The position numbers and the translations under genes are program-made. A stretch of DNA of 56,531 nucleotides, from positions 1-56,531 of the forward strand of contig CAYTES010000003.1 of NCBI GenBank assembly GCA_964436935.1. Reading direction: 5' to 3'. Under the pieces are notes generated by a model that was not told the DNA's origin, did not search any database, and saw nothing but the letters and a program-made list of their open reading frames with translations. Shown piece after piece: positions 6,527 to 56,442 of this stretch. This DNA comes from an uncultured Candidatus Peribacteria bacterium (GTDB taxonomy: Bacteria; Patescibacteriota; Gracilibacteria; UBA1369; UBA12473). How positions within the stretch are numbered: position 1 is the first letter of the stretch; each line of letters begins with the position of its first letter.

Positions 6527-6691
6527 TAGCCTACTTACATAATAAAATTTCGTTACGAAATGAAGAAAATTTCAGCGAAAACGATAAGGCACGAGGAAGC
6601 TTTATCAGATACCGATAAAGAGACGAGTGGCGAATCGTTTGCAGCCAAATTTTCAAATTGCAGTAGAAAGGCTTATTATGTAAGTAGGCTA
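6527..6691 (+). ncRNA. candidate structured RNA / cis-regulatory element E1 (165 nt, 19-bp perfect closing stem)
   Basis: TAGCCTACTTACATAATAA (6527-6545) is the exact reverse complement of 6673-6691. Nested helices are 6565-6572/6647-6654, 6579-6585/6634-6640 and 6600-6606/6614-6620, plus a side hairpin at 6547-6561. The 3' arm ends 2 nt before the mraY ATG. Confidence 0.45.
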
Positions 6692-15986: not shown

Positions 15987-16994
15987 ATGAAGCCTCGTGT
16001 TGCCATCAATGGATTCGGTCGCATCGGACGAAATACCTTTCGTGCCAATCTTGAAAAAGATAGTTTCGAGGTCATTGCCATCAACGACCTCGGTGACGTC
16101 AACACCTTGGCTCATCTTCTGGAATACGATTCTCTCTACGGGAAAATAAATGGCACGGTGGAAGTATCAGGAAAGGACCTCGTGGTGAATGGAAAAAAAA
16201 TTCATGTCTATTCGGAAAAAAATCCGGCCGACTTACCCTGGAAAAATCAACAAATTGATGTCGTTTTGGAATGCACCGGCTTTTTCACCGACAGAAAAGA
16301 CGCACAAAAACATCTCGATGCAGGCGCTAAAAAAGTAATCGTGAGTGCACCGGGAAAAGAAATGGATCTCACGGTGGTCTTAGGAGTCAACGAGGACAAC
16401 TATGAAGGATCAAAACATCACATTCTCTCAAACGCCTCCTGTACCACCAACTGCTTGGCACCTGTTGCAAAAGTGCTGCATGAAAATTTCAATATCCTCA
16501 AAGGATTGATGACCACCGCTCATTCTTACACCAATGACCAACGCATCCTGGACCTGCCGCACGAAGATCTCCGCCGTGCCCGAGCCGCCAACCTTTCGAT
16601 GATTCCAACCACAACCGGTGCGGCAAAAGCCGTTGGCCTGGTGTTACCCGAACTAGAAGGCAAACTCAATGGAATGGCGATCCGAATTCCCACCCCCACG
16701 GTTTCCATCATAGATTTGGTCGTTGATGTCGAGAAATCCACCACCAAAGAAGAGGTCAATGCCTTAGTCAAAGCCGCCTCCGAAGGTGCGATGAAAGGCT
16801 ACCTCGACTACAGCGAAAAACCCCTCGTCTCGATCGACTACCGCGGAGACGCGCACTCCTCCATCGTGGATGGACTTTCCACCATGGTCATTGGAGGCAC
16901 GATGATCAAAATCATCGCCTGGTACGACAATGAATGGGGCTATTCCAACCGCTTGGTGGATTTGGTGGGGTACATGTCTAATAAAGGACTTTAG
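15987..16994 (+). CDS. gap: glyceraldehyde-3-phosphate dehydrogenase (paralog 2, monocistronic)
   Basis: MKPRVAINGFGRIGRN, SNASCTTNCLAP and WYDNEWGYS. The start is placed at the internal ATG (15987) because the 17 upstream residues of the tracked ORF are not GAPDH-like. Confidence 0.9.
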   Translation: MKPRVAINGFGRIGRNTFRANLEKDSFEVIAINDLGDVNTLAHLLEYDSLYGKINGTVEVSGKDLVVNGKKIHVYSEKNPADLPWKNQQIDVVLECTGFFTDRKDAQKHLDAGAKKVIVSAPGKEMDLTVVLGVNEDNYEGSKHHILSNASCTTNCLAPVAKVLHENFNILKGLMTTAHSYTNDQRILDLPHEDLRRARAANLSMIPTTTGAAKAVGLVLPELEGKLNGMAIRIPTPTVSIIDLVVDVEKSTTKEEVNALVKAASEGAMKGYLDYSEKPLVSIDYRGDAHSSIVDGLSTMVIGGTMIKIIAWYDNEWGYSNRLVDLVGYMSNKGL

Positions 16995-24795: not shown

Positions 24796-25053
24796 TCACT
24801 CTCCATAATGAGTTCGAGCGCGCTTAACATAAATCCGCCTCAGCTGGGGATCGATACTATAAACAAGTCGATCCTTAATGTTGAGGCGGTAGGAATAGTT
24901 GCCTTCAAGTTCACCCACTAATTTTTTGCCCACATAAGGATCTTGGGCAATCACCTCGATCAACAATTTTTTCAATTTCTCTTTGAGCTTGGGAGAAAGT
25001 GATTGAACATCTTTAAGTGCCTGCTTCGCGAAAAAAATCTCGTAAAGTTTCAT
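24796..25053 (-). CDS. type II toxin, RelE/YoeB (Txe) superfamily
   Basis: 85 aa. YSYRLNIKDRLVYSID...RTHYGE resembles the YoeB/RelE C-terminal catalytic region. It overlaps the upstream antitoxin stop by 4 nt. Confidence 0.75.
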   Translation of the reverse strand: MKLYEIFFAKQALKDVQSLSPKLKEKLKKLLIEVIAQDPYVGKKLVGELEGNYSYRLNIKDRLVYSIDPQLRRIYVKRARTHYGE

Positions 25054-25307
25054 TCGGATTTAAACACTTGATCAAAAGAAAAAACTTCTCCGTTCTTTAT
25101 CTCTATATCCGCTTTTCGAATGGAAGCCTTAAATCCCGGGATAGACAATAATTCCGCCGTTTCCATCAAATTTTCATATTCTTCTTCTGAAATAAGGATC
25201 ACATCTCCCTCTTTGGAAGAAACGCGAATAGGATGATGCGTTTTAAGTGCCGACTTTAAAAGTGAAAAAAAGGTAGAACGAGCATCGGTCGCCGTAAGAG
25301 TTTTCAT
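25050..25307 (-). CDS. type II antitoxin, Phd/YefM family
   Basis: MKTLTATDARSTFFSLLK...PIRVSSKEGDVILISEEEYENLMETAELL is a typical YefM N-terminal fold. The start is set at ATG 25307; the tracked TTG start at 25334 lies inside the operator palindrome. Confidence 0.8.
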   Translation of the reverse strand: MKTLTATDARSTFFSLLKSALKTHHPIRVSSKEGDVILISEEEYENLMETAELLSIPGFKASIRKADIEIKNGEVFSFDQVFKSE

Positions 25308-25309
25308 AA

Positions 25310-25345
25310 ATGTACTATTTAATGTACGTACCAATTATAGTACAT
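25310..25345 (-). promoter_or_regulatory. candidate TA operator: palindrome with four GTAC cores
   Basis: In ATGTACTATTTAATGTAC|GTACCAATTATAGTACAT the outer 9 nt are perfect inverted repeats. It lies immediately upstream of the antitoxin start. The E. coli yefM-yoeB operators use TGTACA cores. Confidence 0.5.
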
Positions 25346-31763: not shown

Positions 31764-32276
31764 ATGCGCAGTGTAAATAAAGTTATTTTACTGGGAAATG
31801 TAACACGCGATCCACAAGTACGTAGCACTCAAAGCGGCCAAATGGTTTGCACCTTCGGAATCGCCACAAATCGAGAATGGATCACGTCGGACGGACGACA
31901 ACAGGGTTCCGCCGAATACACGGAAGTGGTGGCATGGGCTAAATTGGCCGATATCTGCAAAAAATACATCCGAAAAGGAAAATTGGTGTACGTGGAAGGA
32001 TACCTAAAAACTCGAAGCTGGGACACGCCAGAAGGCATTCGTCGCTTCAAAACGGAAGTGGTCATTCAGGATATGATCATGGTGGGGCCCCGAGAAGATC
32101 GAGGTGACGAAGGATTTGAAGAAGCCGTAAGGGAGGCTCAAATGGACGAACCCATTTATGACGATATGGACAGCCCTTTACCCTCGGAAATGGACCAGGA
32201 AATGAGTGCTCCAAAAGAAGCCGCTTCTCCTGCTCCATCCTCCTCGAATCTTATTGATAAAGATTTGGGCCTTTAA
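31764..32276 (+). CDS. ssb: single-stranded DNA-binding protein
   Basis: OB fold [17 protein letters not shown]...FGIATNREW...[31 protein letters not shown]. The linker is acidic and the C-terminus is ...NLIDKDLGL. Confidence 0.85.
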
Positions 32277-39014: not shown

Positions 39015-39180
39015 AGAACGTATTCGAGATCTAACAATGAGATGACTTTTGCAGGATTTTTGTGTCAGGCTAGGCGCGACGACGAAACCCTATCAATAAA
39101 ACGATAAGGTAAGGAGGCGCAACAACGCATGACGCAAAAAGACAAAAAAGCCACTCAATGGGAGATCTCGAATACGTTCT
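39015..39180 (+). ncRNA. candidate structured 5' leader RNA E2 (166 nt, 18-bp perfect closing stem)
   Basis: AGAACGTATTCGAGATCT (39015-39032) is the exact reverse complement of 39163-39180. Nested helices are 39035-39041/39154-39160 and 39046-39052/39134-39141. It contains AAAACGATAAGG (39098-39109), which is identical to 6578-6589 in E1, and AAGGAGG (39111-39117). Confidence 0.5.
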
Positions 39181-44610: not shown

Positions 44611-44705
44611 AATAAAATGATTCACAAGAGTCATAAAAATAGATCATGCTTGACATGGTCTATTTTTTATATTTAAATAAAATCCATCATTTTCTAAAAA
44701 ACACT

Positions 44706-45818
44706 ATGGCACAAACAAACGAAGAAATGAGCCAACCGGAAGTGTCGAAATTGACCGCGCACTTCTTGGAGTTAATGGATGACGACTATGCTCAGCAACA
44801 ATGGGAAAGAAGGAGTAGGAGCGAAACGGCCATGAAGGCTTTTATTCTTGAAAACCTTTGTCCGAACAGCGAAAAATTAACACATCTGTACGAACAGATG
44901 ATTGGAAATCAAATTTTATTTGAATTGAAACAAGCCCGGAAAAAAAACATACTCGAGCTATTGGAAAGAAAAACTCCTCTTGAATTGAGATCGTTGAGCA
45001 AGTCGGTCGAGCTGTTGGAGCCCTTTAGTGAAAACCCCTTCAAGGAGGATATGGCCAATCCCCTCCTTGAAGCCATCGCAAAAACACAACCCAAGCCGAA
45101 CGAATCAAAAAAGTCTAACCCCATAACGGAAAAAGAGATGAAAGAGGTGGTCGCATCAAACCTATTTTCCAGCATAGAAGAAGCAATCGCACTCTATTTT
45201 AAAATTTTACAATACCAATCCCCCAAACAATACAACCGCCTCATGCATATGGATGAAGCACAGTTGGAATGGTGGTATAAGCAAGGCGGAGTCTATCAAG
45301 AAGTGAGAATGTTGCGACTTGTAAAAGAAGAACCCCAAAAACCAAGTCAAACCCCTTCGCCCGAAGTGGAATCCCCTCAAAGGGACCGCCGCCCCCCAGC
45401 CTCCTCCGGTCAAAAAAGAAGAGAAGCACCAAAGGCGACCATGGCGGATTGGAATCGTGCATTTGAAAAAGCCTCACAAGATGCCAATCAAGAACTTGAA
45501 GCCGCGAGAAAGAGAGTAGAATCAGCAGAAAAAAATCTAGGACGAGCAATAAACGATGTGCTCCACGAATTAGAAAACGAAAAAAGACGCACAGAAGCCC
45601 TTGAAGAAAAGTTGTCTCGTGGAATAGAAGTGCTTGAGGTAGGCCTCTCGCAAGTGGAAGAACAGGTTTCCCGTGGGATGAAAGCGGCGGAAGAAGGCGT
45701 TTCGCAGGGAATTCAAATTCTCGAAAAAACCGTTGCCCCGCAACTGGAAAGAGCAGCCAGCTTAGGAAGAAAAGCACTTGGATGGCTCGAAAAAAGGGTG
45801 AATAAGCAAGGAAAATAA
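44706..45818 (+). CDS. hypothetical coiled-coil protein inserted between rpsJ and rplC
   Basis: The start is set at MAQTNEEM. There is a Pro/Ser-rich linker, then a C-terminal region with repeated (L/V)S(R/Q)G segments roughly 8-11 residues apart (LSRGIEVLEVGLSQVEEQVSRGMKAAEEGVSQGIQILEK). Confidence 0.6.
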   Translation: MAQTNEEMSQPEVSKLTAHFLELMDDDYAQQQWERRSRSETAMKAFILENLCPNSEKLTHLYEQMIGNQILFELKQARKKNILELLERKTPLELRSLSKSVELLEPFSENPFKEDMANPLLEAIAKTQPKPNESKKSNPITEKEMKEVVASNLFSSIEEAIALYFKILQYQSPKQYNRLMHMDEAQLEWWYKQGGVYQEVRMLRLVKEEPQKPSQTPSPEVESPQRDRRPPASSGQKRREAPKATMADWNRAFEKASQDANQELEAARKRVESAEKNLGRAINDVLHELENEKRRTEALEEKLSRGIEVLEVGLSQVEEQVSRGMKAAEEGVSQGIQILEKTVAPQLERAASLGRKALGWLEKRVNKQGK

Positions 45819-45856
45819 CTCACTGCAATCTGTAAATAAAAAAGAATGAAAAAGGC

Positions 45857-45885
45857 TTGACTGTGAAAAATGAAATCGCTAATCT
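45857..45885 (+). promoter_or_regulatory. candidate promoter of rplC leader (paralog of 43792 promoter)
   Basis: TTGACT-17 nt-TAATCT. It is followed by a leader hairpin GCGGAGA (45923-45929)/TCTCCGC (45956-45962) that encloses CAGGAGGAA. Confidence 0.5.
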
Positions 45886-45999
45886 AGTCGGGCTTACAAA
45901 TTTGTTATTCCACCGCGATGCGGCGGAGAAAGTCGAGGTCAGGAGGAATTCATTCTCTCCGCTACGATCAAAGCTTTCCATTATTAACCTCTTCCACCA

Positions 46000-50595: not shown

Positions 50596-50619
50596 TTCAT
50601 ACACTGTAATTTAATTCTC

Positions 50620-50868
50620 ATGCGAAGCAAAAACGGAATCGTCATCAGTGCCAAAAACGACAAAACCATCGTCGTACGGGTGGATATGTATAAGGCTCAC
50701 CCTAAATACAAGAAACGATATCGTACCTCAACAAAATTCCATGCGCACGATGAAGGCAATCAATACAAAGAAGGCGATACGGTAACGATCTACGAATCAC
50801 GCCCCCTCAGCCGAATGAAGCGATGGAATGTCGAAAAACCTTCAACTTCACCCGAAACTCAATCTTAA
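50620..50868 (+). CDS. rpsQ: 30S ribosomal protein S17
   Basis: GIVISAKNDKTIVVRVDMYKAHPKYKKRYRTSTKFHAHDE. Confidence 0.94.
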   Translation: MRSKNGIVISAKNDKTIVVRVDMYKAHPKYKKRYRTSTKFHAHDEGNQYKEGDTVTIYESRPLSRMKRWNVEKPSTSPETQS

Positions 50869-50898
50869 TATCTCTTACTGTTTCTCTAGCCCAATCTC

Positions 50899-51267
50899 AT
50901 GATTCAAGTTCAAACTCGCCTGAAGGTGGCAGACAATACCGGTGCTAAAGAAGTGATGTGCATCAAAGTCCTTGGAGGCTCCAAAAGGCGCTATGCCCGA
51001 TTGGGAGATGTCATCGTGGTTTCCGTCAAAGAAGCCGCCCCTCGAGGAGTGGTGAAAAAAAAGAGCGTTCAACGTGCCGTTGTGGTACGACAAACCAAGG
51101 AGGTGGGGCGCATCGACGGAACCTATGTTCGATTCGATGAAAATGCCGTAGTGATCATTGGAAAAGACAATGTACCGAAAGGAACTCGTGTCTTCGGCCC
51201 TGTAGCCCGCGAATTACGGGATAAGGGGTTCTACAAGATTATTTCGCTCGCTCCTGATGTTATCTAA
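50899..51267 (+). CDS. rplN: 50S ribosomal protein L14
   Basis: [33 protein letters not shown]. Confidence 0.97.
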
Positions 51268-51287
51268 TTACTAATTCTGTTAACTAT

Positions 51288-51412
51288 GTTTCACTCAAAA
51301 TCTATTTAGTTCAAGACGGCAAAACATTTATCGCCGAAACGCCCGCCTGAGGCGGGCCGATGAGGCGGAAAATGGAGTAGCCAACACGGAAATAAATGAT
51401 TTTCAGTGAAAC
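51288..51412 (+). ncRNA. candidate structured RNA element, copy A (125 nt) in the rplN-rplX spacer
   Basis: GTTTCACTCAAAATC...GATTTTCAGTGAAAC terminal pairing, nested inner helices, and an apical GCCCGCC-TGA-GGCGGGC hairpin (51341-51357). About 85% identical to 54561-54681 outside the apical segment. Confidence 0.6.
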
Positions 51413-51433
51413 CACTACTAATTAAATAAAGCT

Positions 51434-51763
51434 ATGAAAGTCAAACAAGGAGATAATGTATTGGTTACTGCCGGAAAGAACAAAGGTTCAAAAGGCAAGG
51501 TCATGAAAGTTATGAAGAAAAATGACAAAATTGTTGTTGAAAAAATCAACATGCGTAAAAAACATATTAAGAAAAGCGCGTCAAAACCGGGCGAAATCAT
51601 TACCTACGAAGCTCCAATACACGTCTCAAATGTAAAAGTGGTATGTCCCGGCTGTAATAAAGGAGTTCGCGTAGGGTACACCATCCTGGAAAACGGAAAG
51701 AAACAACGGGTATGTAAAAAATGTCAACAATCGCTGGACAAGCCCGTGGAATCTAAAAAATAA
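51434..51763 (+). CDS. rplX: 50S ribosomal protein L24 with C4 zinc-ribbon insertion
   Basis: KOW motif VKQGDNVLVTAGKNKGSKGKV, plus CPGC...CKKC in the C-terminal half. Confidence 0.93.
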   Translation: MKVKQGDNVLVTAGKNKGSKGKVMKVMKKNDKIVVEKINMRKKHIKKSASKPGEIITYEAPIHVSNVKVVCPGCNKGVRVGYTILENGKKQRVCKKCQQSLDKPVESKK

Positions 51764-51787
51764 CTTCCTTACTAACTCTTCTGAATC

Positions 51788-52300
51788 ATGAAAAAAGTGG
51801 CAACAAAAGAAAATCCAATGGCAATCCCAAGAATCACAAAAGTCAGTATCAATGTGGGAATTGGAAGCTACATTCAAAAAGGTGGGGACAAAAATTTTGA
51901 TCCGGTGATTGAAAATATCAAACGATTGAGTGGTCAAAAACCCATGATAACCAAAGCTAAAAAAGCCATTTCGAACTTTAAATTAAGAGAAGGAATGCCG
52001 GTTGGAGTAGCGGTCACACTGAGAGGCCCCCGTATGAATGATTTCCTTACGCGATTGGTGCATATTGTACTGCCTCGCATCCGGGATTTCCGAGGAATTT
52101 CAGCTCGTGGATTTGATGGGAGAGGAACGTATACCCTTGGAATCAAGGAAATTACCGTTTTTCCCGAAGTGAATCCGGACAACGTAAGTCGTAATCATGG
52201 GGTGCAGATCACAATCAGCACCACAGCCGAAAAGAACACTGAAGGTTACCTCTTATTGAAAGGAATGGGCTTCCCCTTCCGAGATGAACCCAAAGCATAA
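51788..52300 (+). CDS. rplE: 50S ribosomal protein L5 (short N-terminus)
   Basis: IPRITKVSINVGIGS...MPVGVAVTLRGPRMNDFLTRL. Confidence 0.93.
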   Translation: MKKVATKENPMAIPRITKVSINVGIGSYIQKGGDKNFDPVIENIKRLSGQKPMITKAKKAISNFKLREGMPVGVAVTLRGPRMNDFLTRLVHIVLPRIRDFRGISARGFDGRGTYTLGIKEITVFPEVNPDNVSRNHGVQITISTTAEKNTEGYLLLKGMGFPFRDEPKA

Positions 52301-52316
52301 ATTATAACCCTATCCA

Positions 52317-52541
52317 ATGGCTCGTACAGCGCTCATCGTCAAATGCAAACGACTTCAAACCGAACACATGAAAGCTCTTGCGAGCGGAAAAGATCCGGTG
52401 AATCCAACTCGTGTTTACAACCGCTGTGAACGCTGTGGAAAGATTCGAGGATTCATGCGACGATTTGGACTCTGTCGTATTTGCTTCCGCAACCTTGCCG
52501 GAGAAGGCCTGATCATGGGGGTTCGAAAATCTTCATGGTAA
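52317..52541 (+). CDS. rpsN: 30S ribosomal protein S14 (zinc-binding type, 74 aa)
   Basis: [22 protein letters not shown]. Confidence 0.93.
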
Positions 52542-52583
52542 TCCATCGTCACTCACCAACCACTAAACGCTAACCGTTTCCTA

Positions 52584-52967
52584 ATGAATACCGATCCTAT
52601 CGCCGACATGTTGAACCGCATTGGAAATGCCAAAAAGGCGAGACACGAACAATTGACTCTCCCTTATTCCAAAATTAAAATGGAAATCCTTAAAGTAATG
52701 GAATCCAATCGATTCATTGAAAAAGTTTCCATCAATAAACTGGGTCAGTTTCAACATTTGGAAATCAAATTATCTTCCACGAAAGATACAATTTCTTTAA
52801 AAAGAGTATCCAAACCTGGACAACGAATTTATATAAAAGCAGATGAAATAAGATCGGTATTGAATGGATTGGGAATGACCATCCTTTCAACGCCAAAAGG
52901 AGTCATGAGTGGGAAAGATGCAAGAAAGCATAAAGTCGGAGGCGAGTTGCTCTGTGAGATCTACTAA
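52584..52967 (+). CDS. rpsH: 30S ribosomal protein S8
   Basis: DPIADMLNRIGNAKKARHEQLTLPYSKIK. Confidence 0.95.
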   Translation: MNTDPIADMLNRIGNAKKARHEQLTLPYSKIKMEILKVMESNRFIEKVSINKLGQFQHLEIKLSSTKDTISLKRVSKPGQRIYIKADEIRSVLNGLGMTILSTPKGVMSGKDARKHKVGGELLCEIY

Positions 52968-52996
52968 TCACCTATTAACTGTTAAAAACTTAAGCC

Positions 52997-53548
52997 ATGT
53001 CACGAGTAGGCAAAAAAAACATTTCAATCCCAAAGGGAGTCACGGTAACCTATGAAAACGGAGTAATTACCGTAAAAGGTCCAAAGGGAGAACTAACCTT
53101 TACGCATCACCCTCTCATGCAAGTGATACTGTATGAAGATGCCGTACAAATCAAAAGACCCGGGAATGAAAAAATTCATAAGAGCTTACACGGTCTAACA
53201 AGAAGTTTGGTCCAGAATATGGTCACCGGAGTGTCGGTTGGATTTTCCAGACGGTTGGAGGTGAATGGAGTGGGTTATCGCTTCCAAGTTCAAGGAAATA
53301 AATTGGTACTAAGCTTAGGCTATTCTCACCCCATCGAATTCATCGCTGAAAAAGGAATTGAGGTCAAAGCGGATGAAGAAAAGAAAAATGTGATCATTGT
53401 ATCAGGTATGGATAAGCAAAAAGTGGGTCAAGCAGCCGCAAAAATCCGTGAATTCAGAAAACCTGAACCTTACAAAGGGAAAGGAATTAAATACGAAGAA
53501 GAAGTGATTCAAAGAAAAGCTGGTAAAACAGCGGCTAAATCGTCTTAA
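52997..53548 (+). CDS. rplF: 50S ribosomal protein L6
   Basis: MSRVGKKNISIPKGVTVTYENGVITVKGPKGELT. Confidence 0.95.
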   Translation: MSRVGKKNISIPKGVTVTYENGVITVKGPKGELTFTHHPLMQVILYEDAVQIKRPGNEKIHKSLHGLTRSLVQNMVTGVSVGFSRRLEVNGVGYRFQVQGNKLVLSLGYSHPIEFIAEKGIEVKADEEKKNVIIVSGMDKQKVGQAAAKIREFRKPEPYKGKGIKYEEEVIQRKAGKTAAKSS

Positions 53549-53565
53549 TAACCTTTTAATTCATC

Positions 53566-53907
53566 ATGTTTAAGAAAAATATTCTCCGACAAAGACGTCA
53601 TCATAAGATTAAAACGAAGATCAAGGCGACTTCCGATCGTCCTCGATTGGTGGTATACCGTAGTCTTCAGTCAATTTATGCTCAGTTGATCGATGATGCC
53701 CAAGGAAAAACATTGGTTTCATCTTCCGATATGAAAGTCAAAAAGGGAACAAAGATGGAACGTGCCGCCCATGTTGGCAAAGAACTGGCTGAAAAGGCAA
53801 TGGCACTAAAAATTGAAACCTGCGTCTTTGATCGAAACGGATACAAATACCATGGCCGTGTAAAAGCGGTTGCAGAAGGAGCACGTGAAGGAGGATTGAA
53901 ATTCTAA
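53566..53907 (+). CDS. rplR: 50S ribosomal protein L18
   Basis: [20 protein letters not shown]...[26 protein letters not shown]. Confidence 0.95.
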
Positions 53908-53973
53908 TTATCACTAAGCTATACTTAAACTCAGGTTCACCCTTCGATCAATTTAATAACTTTACTTAGAACA

Positions 53974-54531
53974 ATGTCTTACCCCAACAATAACAATAAG
54001 AATAACAACAAGCGCGGACCACGAATGCAGGAAGTGAAAGAATTTGATGAAGAAGTCATTCAACTTGACCGCGTGACCCGTGTGGTGAAAGGGGGACGAC
54101 GTATGCGTTTTCGTGCCACGGTCGCCATTGGGAATCGAAAAGGGAAGGTGGGGATTGGAATAGGTAAATCGGCCGAAGTCGTCGGTGCAATTAAAAAAGC
54201 CGTCACCATGGCCAAGAAAAATCTAGTTAAGGTCCCTATTTATAAAGAAACCGTACCTCATCGTATTCAAGTTAAATTCAAAGCCTCAAAAATCTTGTTG
54301 ATGCCAGCGGGAGCGGGAACCGGAATCATTGCCGGAGGGGCAACGCGTAAAATCATCGAATTGAGCGGAATCAAAAATATTTTGAGCAAAAGTCTGGGAT
54401 CCTCAAATCGAGTGAACACCAGCAAGGCGACCATGAAAGCATTGATGGAATTACGACCTAAAAACGAAGTGAAAGTTCAAGAAAAAGCTAAAGTTGAAGA
54501 GTCGAAAGAAACTAAAAAAGAAGTTGAATAA
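53974..54531 (+). CDS. rpsE: 30S ribosomal protein S5
   Basis: VIQLDRVTRVVKGGRRMRFRATVAIGNRKGKVGIGIGKSAEV. Confidence 0.95.
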   Translation: MSYPNNNNKNNNKRGPRMQEVKEFDEEVIQLDRVTRVVKGGRRMRFRATVAIGNRKGKVGIGIGKSAEVVGAIKKAVTMAKKNLVKVPIYKETVPHRIQVKFKASKILLMPAGAGTGIIAGGATRKIIELSGIKNILSKSLGSSNRVNTSKATMKALMELRPKNEVKVQEKAKVEESKETKKEVE

Positions 54532-54560
54532 ATAATGGTTAATAAAAAATTTCTATATAT

Positions 54561-54681
54561 GTTTCACTCAAAATCGATATAGTTCAAGGCAGCAAGCCAT
54601 TTATCTCCGAGGCGCACAAAAGGTACGACGAGGTGAAAAATGGTGAAGCCAACACCGAAATATGTCGATTTTCAGTGAAAC
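54561..54681 (+). ncRNA. candidate structured RNA element, copy B (121 nt) in the rpsE-rplO spacer (rpmD slot)
   Basis: It has the same termini and conserved blocks as 51288-51412 (CATTTATC, AAAATGG, AGCCAACAC, GAAATA) with a different apical segment. Confidence 0.6.
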
Positions 54682-54706
54682 CCTAATAAACTAACTCTAA
54701 AAAATA

Positions 54707-55150
54707 ATGCAGCAAAACGAACTCAAATCGACTCCAGGCGCACGAAAAAGTAAAAGACGTTTGGGACGAGGAAATGGTTCAGGACGTGGAACCTACTCCG
54801 GTCGGGGGGGGAAAGGTCAAACGGCTAGGGCGGGTGGTAAATTACGCATAGGATTTGCAGGAGGTCAAACTCCCCTGATGATGCGTATGCCTAAATTGGG
54901 TGGCTTCAAAAACATCAATCGTGTGGAATATGCGGTCATCAATGTAGGACTTTTAGGAGAAAACTACAAAGAAGGAGAAATCGTCGATCGAAGCAGCTTG
55001 ATTGAAAAACGACTTTTAAAAAAGACCTCTAAGCCCATTAAAGTATTGGCAACCGGAGAAATCAAGGTCGCCTTAACCGTGAAGTTGGATAAGATCTCAG
55101 AAGCCGCAAAAGCTAAAATTATAAATGCTAAAGGCACTGTTGAATGCTAA
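54707..55150 (+). CDS. rplO: 50S ribosomal protein L15
   Basis: RRLGRGNGSGRGTYSGRGGKGQTARAG. Confidence 0.95.
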   Translation: MQQNELKSTPGARKSKRRLGRGNGSGRGTYSGRGGKGQTARAGGKLRIGFAGGQTPLMMRMPKLGGFKNINRVEYAVINVGLLGENYKEGEIVDRSSLIEKRLLKKTSKPIKVLATGEIKVALTVKLDKISEAAKAKIINAKGTVEC

Positions 55151-56442
55151 AGACTCTCACTCAAATTTGGCATGCCAAAGATTTAAGAAAAAAGATTCTT
55201 TTCACACTTGGAATTGTGGTCGTGTTTCGTTTGATGACGCACATAACACTTCCCGGGGTTAATTTGGATGCCTTAAAAGTGGTCTTTGAGCAAAATAAAC
55301 TGCTCGGCGCTTTCAGTTTATTAACCGGAGGAAGTGCTGAAAATTTCTCCATCGTATTGATGGGACTATCTCCTTACATCAATGCTTCGATCATCGTTCA
55401 ATTGATGACCGTGGTATCCACCAAACTTGAATCCATTTCAAAAGAAGGAGAAGAAGGAAGACGCAAAATCAACCGCTACACCCGTTGGCTGGCCTTACCG
55501 TTGGCGTTTTTGCAGTCGTACGGAATGATCAGTCTCATGAACGCTTCGGCTCCCATTCCCATTGTTGAAAATCTAAACGACTTGAGTGTGCTGTTGCCCT
55601 TAATGATCACTATTTCAACCGGAACAATTGTATTGATGTGGTTGGGAGAATTGATCACTGAAAAAGGAATTGGAAACGGCATCTCAATTTTGATTTTTGC
55701 CGGAATTATGGCGGGGATTCCTTCCCTTTTAGCGTCTACATTAGCCTTAACGGAACAAGATAACGCAAAATTAATTCCCCTGGTGGCCACCGTACTAATG
55801 ACCATTTTATTCGTGGTCGTTATTATTCTGATCACTGAAGGACAACGCCGTATTCCCATCACCTATGCCGGTCAAGGCAAAGGGCTAAAAGGAGGAGATT
55901 CCAATTTGCCCATTCGTATCAACCAGGCGGGAATGATACCGATCATATTTGCCGTTTCGGTGGTAACTTTCCCCTCGGTCATTGGACAATTTTTGATCAA
56001 TGCCAAATCGGAATGGGTCCAATCCGTGGGCAACTTTTTCATCACCTATTTCCAAAGCCAAAGTCTATTATACATGGTGCTGTATTTCCTTTTGATCATT
56101 GGATTCACCTTCTTCTATGTGAGCATCACATTCAATACGGATAATGTGGCTGAAAATATACAAAAACGAGGGGGCTTCATTCCCGGTATTCGTCCCGGAA
56201 AAGAAACGTCCGAATACTTAAAAAACGTCTCCAATCGCTTGAACCTATGGGGCGGGCTATTCATCGCTTTGGTCGCGGTGTCCCCCATCATCATCCAACA
56301 AGTCTTTCAAGATTTTGGAACCGGAGGGATTCCGGTAATCATCAGTGGAGCCGGATTGATCATCGTCGTAGGGGTCGTACTGGATCTTGTGCGACAGGTG
56401 AACGCCCAAATGGTTTCCCATCATTACGATCGTTTCTATTAA
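55144..56442 (+). CDS. secY: preprotein translocase subunit SecY
   Basis: 10-TM profile with ITEKGIGNGISILIFAGI. Its start overlaps the rplO stop. Confidence 0.96.
   Translation: MLKTLTQIWHAKDLRKKILFTLGIVVVFRLMTHITLPGVNLDALKVVFEQNKLLGAFSLLTGGSAENFSIVLMGLSPYINASIIVQLMTVVSTKLESISKEGEEGRRKINRYTRWLALPLAFLQSYGMISLMNASAPIPIVENLNDLSVLLPLMITISTGTIVLMWLGELITEKGIGNGISILIFAGIMAGIPSLLASTLALTEQDNAKLIPLVATVLMTILFVVVIILITEGQRRIPITYAGQGKGLKGGDSNLPIRINQAGMIPIIFAVSVVTFPSVIGQFLINAKSEWVQSVGNFFITYFQSQSLLYMVLYFLLIIGFTFFYVSITFNTDNVAENIQKRGGFIPGIRPGKETSEYLKNVSNRLNLWGGLFIALVAVSPIIIQQVFQDFGTGGIPVIISGAGLIIVVGVVLDLVRQVNAQMVSHHYDRFY

Follow-up and report, generated by a model that had tools for sequence, protein, structure and literature searches.

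Phage T7 early mRNA and the E. coli rpsO-pnp transcript carry intercistronic RNase III hairpins with internal mismatches, and cleavage at these hairpins sets the stability of the flanking mRNA segments. The rpsO-pnp site is among the known sites listed in PMC5371410. Bacterial MITE-like repeats also form long RNA stem-loops; they are co-transcribed, influence how stable the mRNA is and in some cases display compensatory changes (PMC3184786). ERIC elements are imperfect palindromes of ~127 bp located in transcribed intergenic regions, including those within operons; they form long RNA hairpins, can alter the stability of neighbouring mRNA, and are described with TA-flanked termini and target duplications (PMC3184786). 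The Correia elements of Neisseria (CREE/NEMIS) are 100–160 nt long, have terminal inverted repeats and a variable core, and are co-transcribed into an RNA hairpin that binds RNase III and is either cleaved or protected by it (PMC2649163). In the Bacillus cereus group, bcr1 is a transcribed repeat of ~155 bp whose RNA structure is upheld by compensatory changes (PMC3184786), and REPINs are palindromic, extragenic, non-coding long hairpins of ~100 nt that lack target duplications (PMC3116915). Regions that contain essential genes are usually poor in repeats (PMC3184786).

Here we analyse a 56,531-nt stretch of DNA (contig CAYTES010000003.1; hereafter the window) from an uncultured Candidatus Peribacteria bacterium, and describe a rod-like palindromic element that occurs in three intercistronic spacers of its ribosomal-protein (r-protein) gene cluster. 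Few known gene arrays are as conserved and compact as ribosomal-protein operons, and genomes of the Candidate Phyla Radiation are small and streamlined. The element fits best among the small palindromic intergenic repeats, as a new member with a low copy number, and is unusual in lying inside an r-protein gene cluster. Correia elements resemble it in size, terminal inverted repeats and variable core, but are highly abundant and carry promoter sites, IHF sites and TA duplications, none of which was found for the rods. Length variants of ERIC arise through internal insertion or deletion, a pattern paralleled by the variable apex of the rod and by a short form in sister species; however, there is no sequence similarity to ERIC, and whereas ERIC is dispersed in tens to hundreds of copies, the rod has three known copies in one cluster and one orientation, without duplications. 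Neither the 5-bp direct-repeat flanks nor the genome-wide scatter of bcr1 is seen for the rods within the ~66 kb examined. A REPIN consists of two inverted palindromic REP units, exists in hundreds of copies and is mobilised by a RAYT transposase; we rejected a REPIN/RAYT assignment because the rod arms (GTTTCACTCAAAATC) are not palindromic or self-complementary and no Y1 transposase was seen among the 30 larger non-ribosomal ORFs of the window that were scanned. For the way of working that we propose, the T7 and rpsO-pnp sites are the closest analogue, although these are conserved, experimentally shown and not recently duplicated, whereas for the rods we infer cleavage. Our literature search returned no paper connecting Peregrinibacteria with inverted repeats.

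Two copies of a palindromic element in the window

In E. coli, the genes of the r-protein cluster form the S10, spc and alpha operons. Between rplC and secY in the window, the spacers of 166 nt at rplN|rplX (51268–51433) and 175 nt at rpsE|rplO (54532–54706) are the sole long junctions, as the original prediction had stated, and the remaining junctions measure −7 to 66 nt. Each long spacer holds one forward-strand copy of the element. Copy A (51288–51412), supported by its fold, a covariance model and independent assemblies, begins 20 nt past the stop codon of rplN (L14; 50899–51267, assigned by Pfam) and ends 21 nt ahead of the start codon of rplX (L24; 51434–51763). Copy B (54561–54681), supported by its fold, the covariance model and its similarity to copy A, lies 29 nt past the stop of rpsE (S5; 53974–54531) and 25 nt ahead of the start of rplO (L15; 54707–55150); rplX, rpsE and rplO, all likewise on the forward strand, follow the gene table. 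Copy A is flanked by a left linker (51268–51287), which is homologous to the left part of the 54–57-nt spacer of the sister species described below, and by a right linker (51413–51433), which runs up to the rplX start codon and is predicted to be mostly unpaired.

Both copies open with the same 5′ terminal arm, GTTTCACTCAAAATC (51288–51302 in copy A, 54561–54575 in copy B), and close with the same 3′ terminal arm, GATTTTCAGTGAAAC (51398–51412 and 54667–54681). The two arms pair throughout, save for a conserved C·C mismatch (51296/51404 in copy A), and a window-wide search found no exact or one-mismatch match to these terminal 15-mers beyond copies A and B. The proposed paralogy of the two copies is borne out by their outer parts, where the 5′ 50 nt are 86% identical and the 3′ 45 nt 87% identical; their centres are unrelated. 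In copy A the predicted perfect apical hairpin GCCCGCC-TGA-GGCGGGC is present at 51341–51357; it is specific to this copy, the apex being where members of the family vary.

In independent NCBI, ENA, JGI and Logan assemblies of this species, copies A and B recur with 100% identity, and they are therefore not assembly artefacts. The L6 protein of the window is also encoded on Rifle groundwater contigs of Candidatus Peregrinibacteria (GCA_000999445.1 LCJI01000039, ANAN16 scaffold_1637 and AMFJ01011042), and the closest named relatives by L6 are Peregrinibacteria. Separately, rpsE is split into ORFs of 87 and 76 aa in the NCBI same-species assembly (L122/L142, LCJI01000039), where the region equivalent to window positions 53974–54531 is 113 nt shorter than in the window and in the ENA assembly; an error of assembly or a deletion in the strain probably accounts for this.

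The cluster and its surroundings have several other features. No Shine–Dalgarno-like purine run precedes the r-protein start codons (50596–50619, 50869–50898 and other junctions of the window). The r-protein spacers contain little G, have AATCTC or AATTCTC at their ends and hardly differ between the window and its sister species, with 24/24 identical positions in the rpmC|rpsQ (L29|S17) spacer when the window is compared with sister species L136. Directly 5′ of rplC, an ORF of 390 aa without a Pfam match is followed by a 181-nt spacer (44646–45999), and no obvious rpsJ (S10) gene adjoins rplC in the window. Farther upstream, an SSB gene (31764–32276; Pfam SSB, E 1e-33) occupies an unusual position between ORFs of 1206 aa and 1271 aa, which are taken as rpoB and rpoC by size and position only, and a pair encoding a YoeB/ParE-like toxin and a Phd/YefM antitoxin (24796–25334, reverse strand) lies directly downstream of dnaK.

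A third copy in the same gene cluster

An inverted-repeat scan of locus L141, 10 kb beyond secY taken from the same genome, revealed a third copy in the 188-nt rpsD|rpoA spacer. Copy C (L141:16602–16721) has the same orientation as A and B, sits ~5.3 kb past the end of the window and is present too in LCJI01000039. Its identity to A and B is 78–84% in paired columns and 53–62% in unpaired columns, and its termini, GATTCAC...GTGAATC, carry a compensatory change from T-A to A-T at the second pair. The three copies lie at three non-homologous sites of one genome (rplN|rplX, rpsE|rplO and rpsD|rpoA), all in sense orientation. An ORF of 33 aa called across copy C (16596–16697) is almost certainly spurious.

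The original prediction had proposed a covariance-model search, which we ran with a model, R1, built from copies A, B and C over the window, L141 and the r-protein clusters of seven related contigs. R1 scored 121 bits on copy A and 137 bits on copy B on the forward strand, and 42 and 57 bits on the reverse strand; nothing was found beyond A, B and C, leaving copy C as the one new copy known. No fourth copy exists in the ~66 kb of this genome examined, and the rest of the window contains ~4.6 kb of spacer without a copy, including 17 spacers of at least 100 nt. By our own estimate from the gene tables of the window and L141, the chance of all three copies falling in the r-protein cluster would be ~0.007 if insertion scaled with spacer length and ~0.09 by junction number; local copying could explain the clustering.

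Wider searches brought no additional members. The 15-mer GTTTCACTSAAAATC is too short and unspecific a pattern for genome contigs, where it gave 120 chance matches, none with a partner arm. A pattern that combined both arms had no match in IMG/VR and, among JGI metagenome contigs, found only copy B of the same species and a chance match in a eukaryote-like tandem repeat. A distant BLAST search of spacer A against plasmids returned nothing.

Evidence that the hairpin is maintained

The nested rod described in the original prediction is the minimum-energy fold of both copy A (−48.5 kcal/mol, z −6.9) and copy B (−40.9 kcal/mol, z −6.2), with 0/200 shuffles as stable in either case. The three-copy consensus computed with RNAalifold is a single unbranched rod of 43 pairs in which 96.9% of cells are paired. 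The basal helix of every copy runs for 8 bp to a C·C mismatch, continues for 12 bp to a G·A mismatch and ends with another 3 bp. No copy departs from three single mismatches (in copy A numbering, C·C 51296/51404, G·A 51309/51392 and A·A 51330/51369), and an AGUUCAA segment is likewise invariant in all three copies. Fold prediction in context indicates that the rods fold autonomously, with the adjacent stop and start regions remaining mostly unpaired.

Differences between the copies preserve this pairing. Position 51306 T pairs with 51395 A in copy A and is matched by A and T in copy B (alignment columns 19/108), and a G in copy B at the position of 51303 is matched by an extra C on its 3′ arm (columns 16/111), both as first described. 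Copy C strengthens the view that pairing is upheld by compensatory change, adding seven pairs changed on both sides and a strong bias towards G·U on the sense strand. In the alignment, both sides have changed at 7 pairs, compared with 2.7±1.2 in column shuffles (0/500) and 0–1 when the partners are slid by 1–3 columns. Placing the substitutions randomly in paired columns leaves 29–34 intact pairs, compared with the 41–43 observed (0/20,000 simulations). Compensatory changes in a palindrome can arise without selection too, by DNA-level template switching. Sequence comparison offers good evidence that the rod hairpin has been kept intact by selection.

We also asked which strand carries the constraint. 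Copies A and B are nearly all Watson–Crick paired and about equally stable on both strands, as would suit a signal acting in the DNA, for instance a cruciform or hairpin that serves recombination, replication or site-specific recombination of the integron attC type. The most diverged copy, C, behaves differently: it has 36 Watson–Crick, 7 G·U and 0 A·C pairs, and its sense fold of −48.8 kcal/mol (z −7.7) compares with −27.8 kcal/mol (z −2.8) for the antisense, weaker by 21 kcal/mol. Summed over all copies, there are 10 G·U pairs and 1 A·C pair. The G·U excess of copy C and the gap between its sense and antisense folds indicate that the constraint acts on the sense mRNA rather than on a DNA palindrome. 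In addition, the attC core GTTRRRY / RYYYAAC is incompatible with termini that read GTTTCAC / GTGAAAC, the neighbours are r-protein genes, and no integrase or recombinase was found among the larger non-ribosomal ORFs of the window that were scanned. On the terminal motifs and the strand asymmetry we rejected attC or another DNA-level signal, which we regard as very improbable. Part of the G·U excess of copy C could be mutational, because A>G and C>T also predominate among the substitutions specific to this copy in unpaired columns (6/7 transitions). A simple A>G/C>T mutation bias of the sense strand is hard to reconcile with the four-fold sites and spacers of the r-protein cluster, which are poor in G and rich in A.

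The original prediction had offered a conserved seven-codon leader ORF as a competing reading; on this view, translation of a leader peptide, MFHSKSI, would regulate the downstream cistron. The forward-strand mini-ORF ATG TTT CAC TCA AAA TCN ATH TAG is present as described in copy A (51286–51309) and copy B (54559–54582), which encode the identical peptide with two synonymous differences. These ‘synonymous’ substitutions are, however, stem positions with matching 3′-arm changes, and are fully explained by the pairing. Copy C has TTG in place of ATG, TTG ATG rather than TCN ATH at codons 6–7 and CAG in place of the TAG stop, and its frame continues through the rod; the sister species also lack an ATG at this position. 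Because the mini-ORF is conserved neither in copy C nor in the sisters, we judged it incidental and rejected the leader-peptide reading as barely credible.

The element has no Rfam family, in agreement with the failure of the original prediction to place it in a known class. Nothing in the window reached the gathering threshold, a permissive search (E up to 10) over 50800–55200 gave only noise of 14 bits or less, and nothing was found at copy C. A 6S-like RNA was rejected, as the large central bubble is missing and there is no Rfam 6S signal. A scan for sigma-70 promoters and intrinsic terminators found nothing in or beside the rods.

The rod is absent from relatives

Six other Peregrinibacteria have the same gene order and L6 or L24 proteins 65–79% identical to those of the window, and all lack the rod. 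Their rplN|rplX junctions are 2–10 nt long and their rpsE|rplO junctions −4 to 30 nt; the rpsD|rpoA junction, from one relative, is 30 nt. In the window, no rpmD (L30) gene lies between rpsE and rplO. Other members of the Candidate Phyla Radiation likewise lack rpmD at this place. An rpmD remnant as the origin of the element at site B was rejected, because relatives that are also without L30 have the short rpsE|rplO junction.

Two sister species, L136 and L137, are much closer to the window, with L24 proteins 91% and 89% identical and 80–90% nucleotide identity across rplN, rplX and rpsQ. Their rplN|rplX spacers are 57 nt (L136) and 54 nt (L137) long, and their flanks are homologous to the flanks in the window. 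At the precise position of site A, each carries a short hairpin, GTTCCAC-GCGAATT-GTGGCAC in L136 (L136:1247–1267) and GTCCCAC-TTCG-GTGGAAC in L137 (L137:1195–1212), the latter with a cUUCGg tetraloop, which is a typical stabilising feature at the RNA level. The stem of this 18–21-nt hairpin corresponds to the rod's seven basal pairs and differs at pair 4 by a double change from T-A to C-G. Either the sister lineage lost the upper 108 nt, or the rod of the window lineage grew or was inserted in a pre-existing hairpin. The motif GTYYCAC..GTGRRAC is not repeated elsewhere in the window or in Peregrinibacteria loci L121–L138. The sister comparison covers site A: a search with the L15 protein gave a best match of 64% identity and no sister species, and the members of the S5 cluster are the same species.

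These comparisons tell against a conserved RNA class of r-protein operons, since six genomes with the same gene order have tight junctions and two sisters have only the short hairpin at site A. The original prediction had itself named a spacer not conserved in relatives that share the rplN–rplX arrangement as an outcome that would count against it, and this is largely what we observe. As the sisters do without the rod at site A and other relatives lack it, any function is recent and not essential.

In one relative, L131 (GCA_964510905.1; also L130), two paralogous spacers of 105–113 nt (L131:3023–3135 and L131:4446–4550) sit at rpsN|rpsH and rplR|rpsE of the same operon. They have in common CAGAGACGAGC..AGCGAGUCUCACCGCU...UCCCAAUCGGGAUUGGCC.AGAGGCC and form three small hairpins, with sense-strand fold z-scores of −3.0 and −4.4, against −0.8 and −1.4 for the antisense strand. 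It appears that a different repeated module has evolved in the spacers of this relative, at two other junctions.

Features of mobile elements

In common with the broad class of REP-, ERIC- and MITE-like repeats, the rod is a non-coding, strictly intergenic imperfect palindrome in the range of tens to ~200 nt, has three copies, is repeated at non-homologous sites and varies in presence and absence among relatives. Its terminal inverted repeats, with 15-nt arms complementary at 14/15 positions and the same in A and B, are of the kind expected of MITEs. The target duplication expected of MITEs was not found: no direct repeat of at least 3 nt flanks copy B or C, even with boundaries shifted by up to 3 nt, and the flanks of copy A show only a shifted ACTA direct repeat. 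Among the 30 larger non-ribosomal ORFs of the window that were scanned, none has a transposase domain. Strict membership among the MITEs is therefore not established. The original prediction held that further copies scattered at random loci, with target-site duplications and without compensatory changes, would point to a plain MITE. A further copy does exist, but copy C lies again in the r-protein cluster, has no duplication and carries compensatory changes.

It is possible, though doubtful in our view, that the rod is a MITE- or REPIN-like mobile palindrome, purely selfish or neutral and without a role for the host. Its hairpin might then persist only because copies that lose it harm an essential, highly expressed operon, or because the arms are mechanically homogenised. 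The terminal inverted repeats, variable centre and lack of coding capacity fit such an element, as do its absence from relatives and the stub in the sister species. The window also contains two other, unrelated rod-like palindromes of ~165 nt in the spacers 6527–6691 and 39015–39180, which suggests that this genome tolerates or accumulates such elements. Against this reading, target-site duplications are lacking, and the copies occupy one cluster in one orientation despite the ~4.6 kb of other spacer in the window. No copy with two intact arms occurs in JGI metagenome contigs beyond this species, and none in IMG/VR. Homogenisation at the DNA level would, moreover, leave the sense-strand G·U bias unexplained.

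The two unrelated palindromes have distinct settings. The first (6527–6691) is 165 nt long with perfect 19-nt termini (TAGCCTACTTACATAATAA), takes up the spacer that separates a D-Ala-D-Ala carboxypeptidase gene from mraY, reaching to within 2 nt of the start of the latter, and folds at −57.4 kcal/mol on the forward and −53.3 kcal/mol on the reverse strand. The second (39015–39180) is 166 nt long with 36-nt arms, lies directly 5′ of the predicted fusA start or overlaps it, and folds at ~−70 kcal/mol on either strand. Their apices are alike, CCTATC...GATAAGG in the second and CTTTATC...GATAAAG in the first.

A possible role between cistrons

Our preferred explanation, held with moderate confidence, is that the rod is a lineage-specific, low-copy palindromic repeat of ~120–125 nt that is co-transcribed and probably serves between cistrons as a hairpin for processing or stability. 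A repeat would have been copied into three intercistronic spacers of the r-protein cluster in one Peregrinibacteria species, and the rods would be transcribed within the polycistronic mRNA; co-transcription is suggested by the location of all genes on one strand, the short spacers and the lack of a promoter or terminator consensus at the rods. Each rod would fold alone into an unbranched 43-bp hairpin, leaving 20–29 nt free after the preceding stop codon and 21–44 nt free before the next start codon. The basal helix, ~25 bp long and nearly continuous, is predicted to provide the approximately two helical turns of mostly continuous double-stranded RNA expected of an RNase III site. The rod is in this sense a candidate site for a double-strand-specific RNase III-type endonuclease, a barrier to 3′-exonucleases, or both. 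Cleavage or protection of this kind would divide the transcript into segments of separate stability without blocking translation of the neighbouring genes, and may benefit the cell. By analogy, the rods may behave like Correia elements with RNase III, like ERIC in its effects on mRNA stability and like the rpsO-pnp and T7 sites. In a weaker version of this explanation, selection may only keep the insert folded and hence harmless. The base of the rod joins its two ends and so would leave the stop–start spacing almost unchanged in three dimensions, which may explain why the insert is tolerated.

The invariant features of the rod could also be seen as sites for one trans-acting protein, such as an r-protein that recognises an rRNA mimic, with autogenous translation control of the three downstream blocks. 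Three copies of one structured motif stand just 5′ of rplX, rplO and rpoA, and the three mismatches (C·C, G·A and A·A) and AGUUCAA are invariant while paired positions covary. However, no Rfam r-protein leader matches the element, the rod does not sequester start regions, and relatives encode the same proteins without it, so one species would have had to evolve the autoregulatory circuit anew. We consider such control improbable.

A bolder proposal, which we think unlikely, is that the rods form a newly evolved punctuation system of the r-protein cluster, a single module serving one trans-acting nuclease or r-protein. A transcript of ~20 kb would then be cut or regulated into four blocks, comprising the genes up to L14, those from L24 to S5, those from L15 to S4, and rpoA onward, and the short cUUCGg-capped hairpin of the sister species would be a minimal form of the same signal.

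The rod is not a broadly conserved new RNA class. Its three copies are fixed in the species and its hairpin is preserved in the sense RNA, which indicates that an r-protein operon can take up new structured RNA modules. With a full rod here, a stub in the sister species and none in other relatives, the lineage provides a natural experiment on intercistronic hairpins in polycistronic mRNA. If the rods do act as a punctuation system, Peregrinibacteria would repeatedly re-wire the most conserved operon of bacteria by means of lineage-specific RNA modules.
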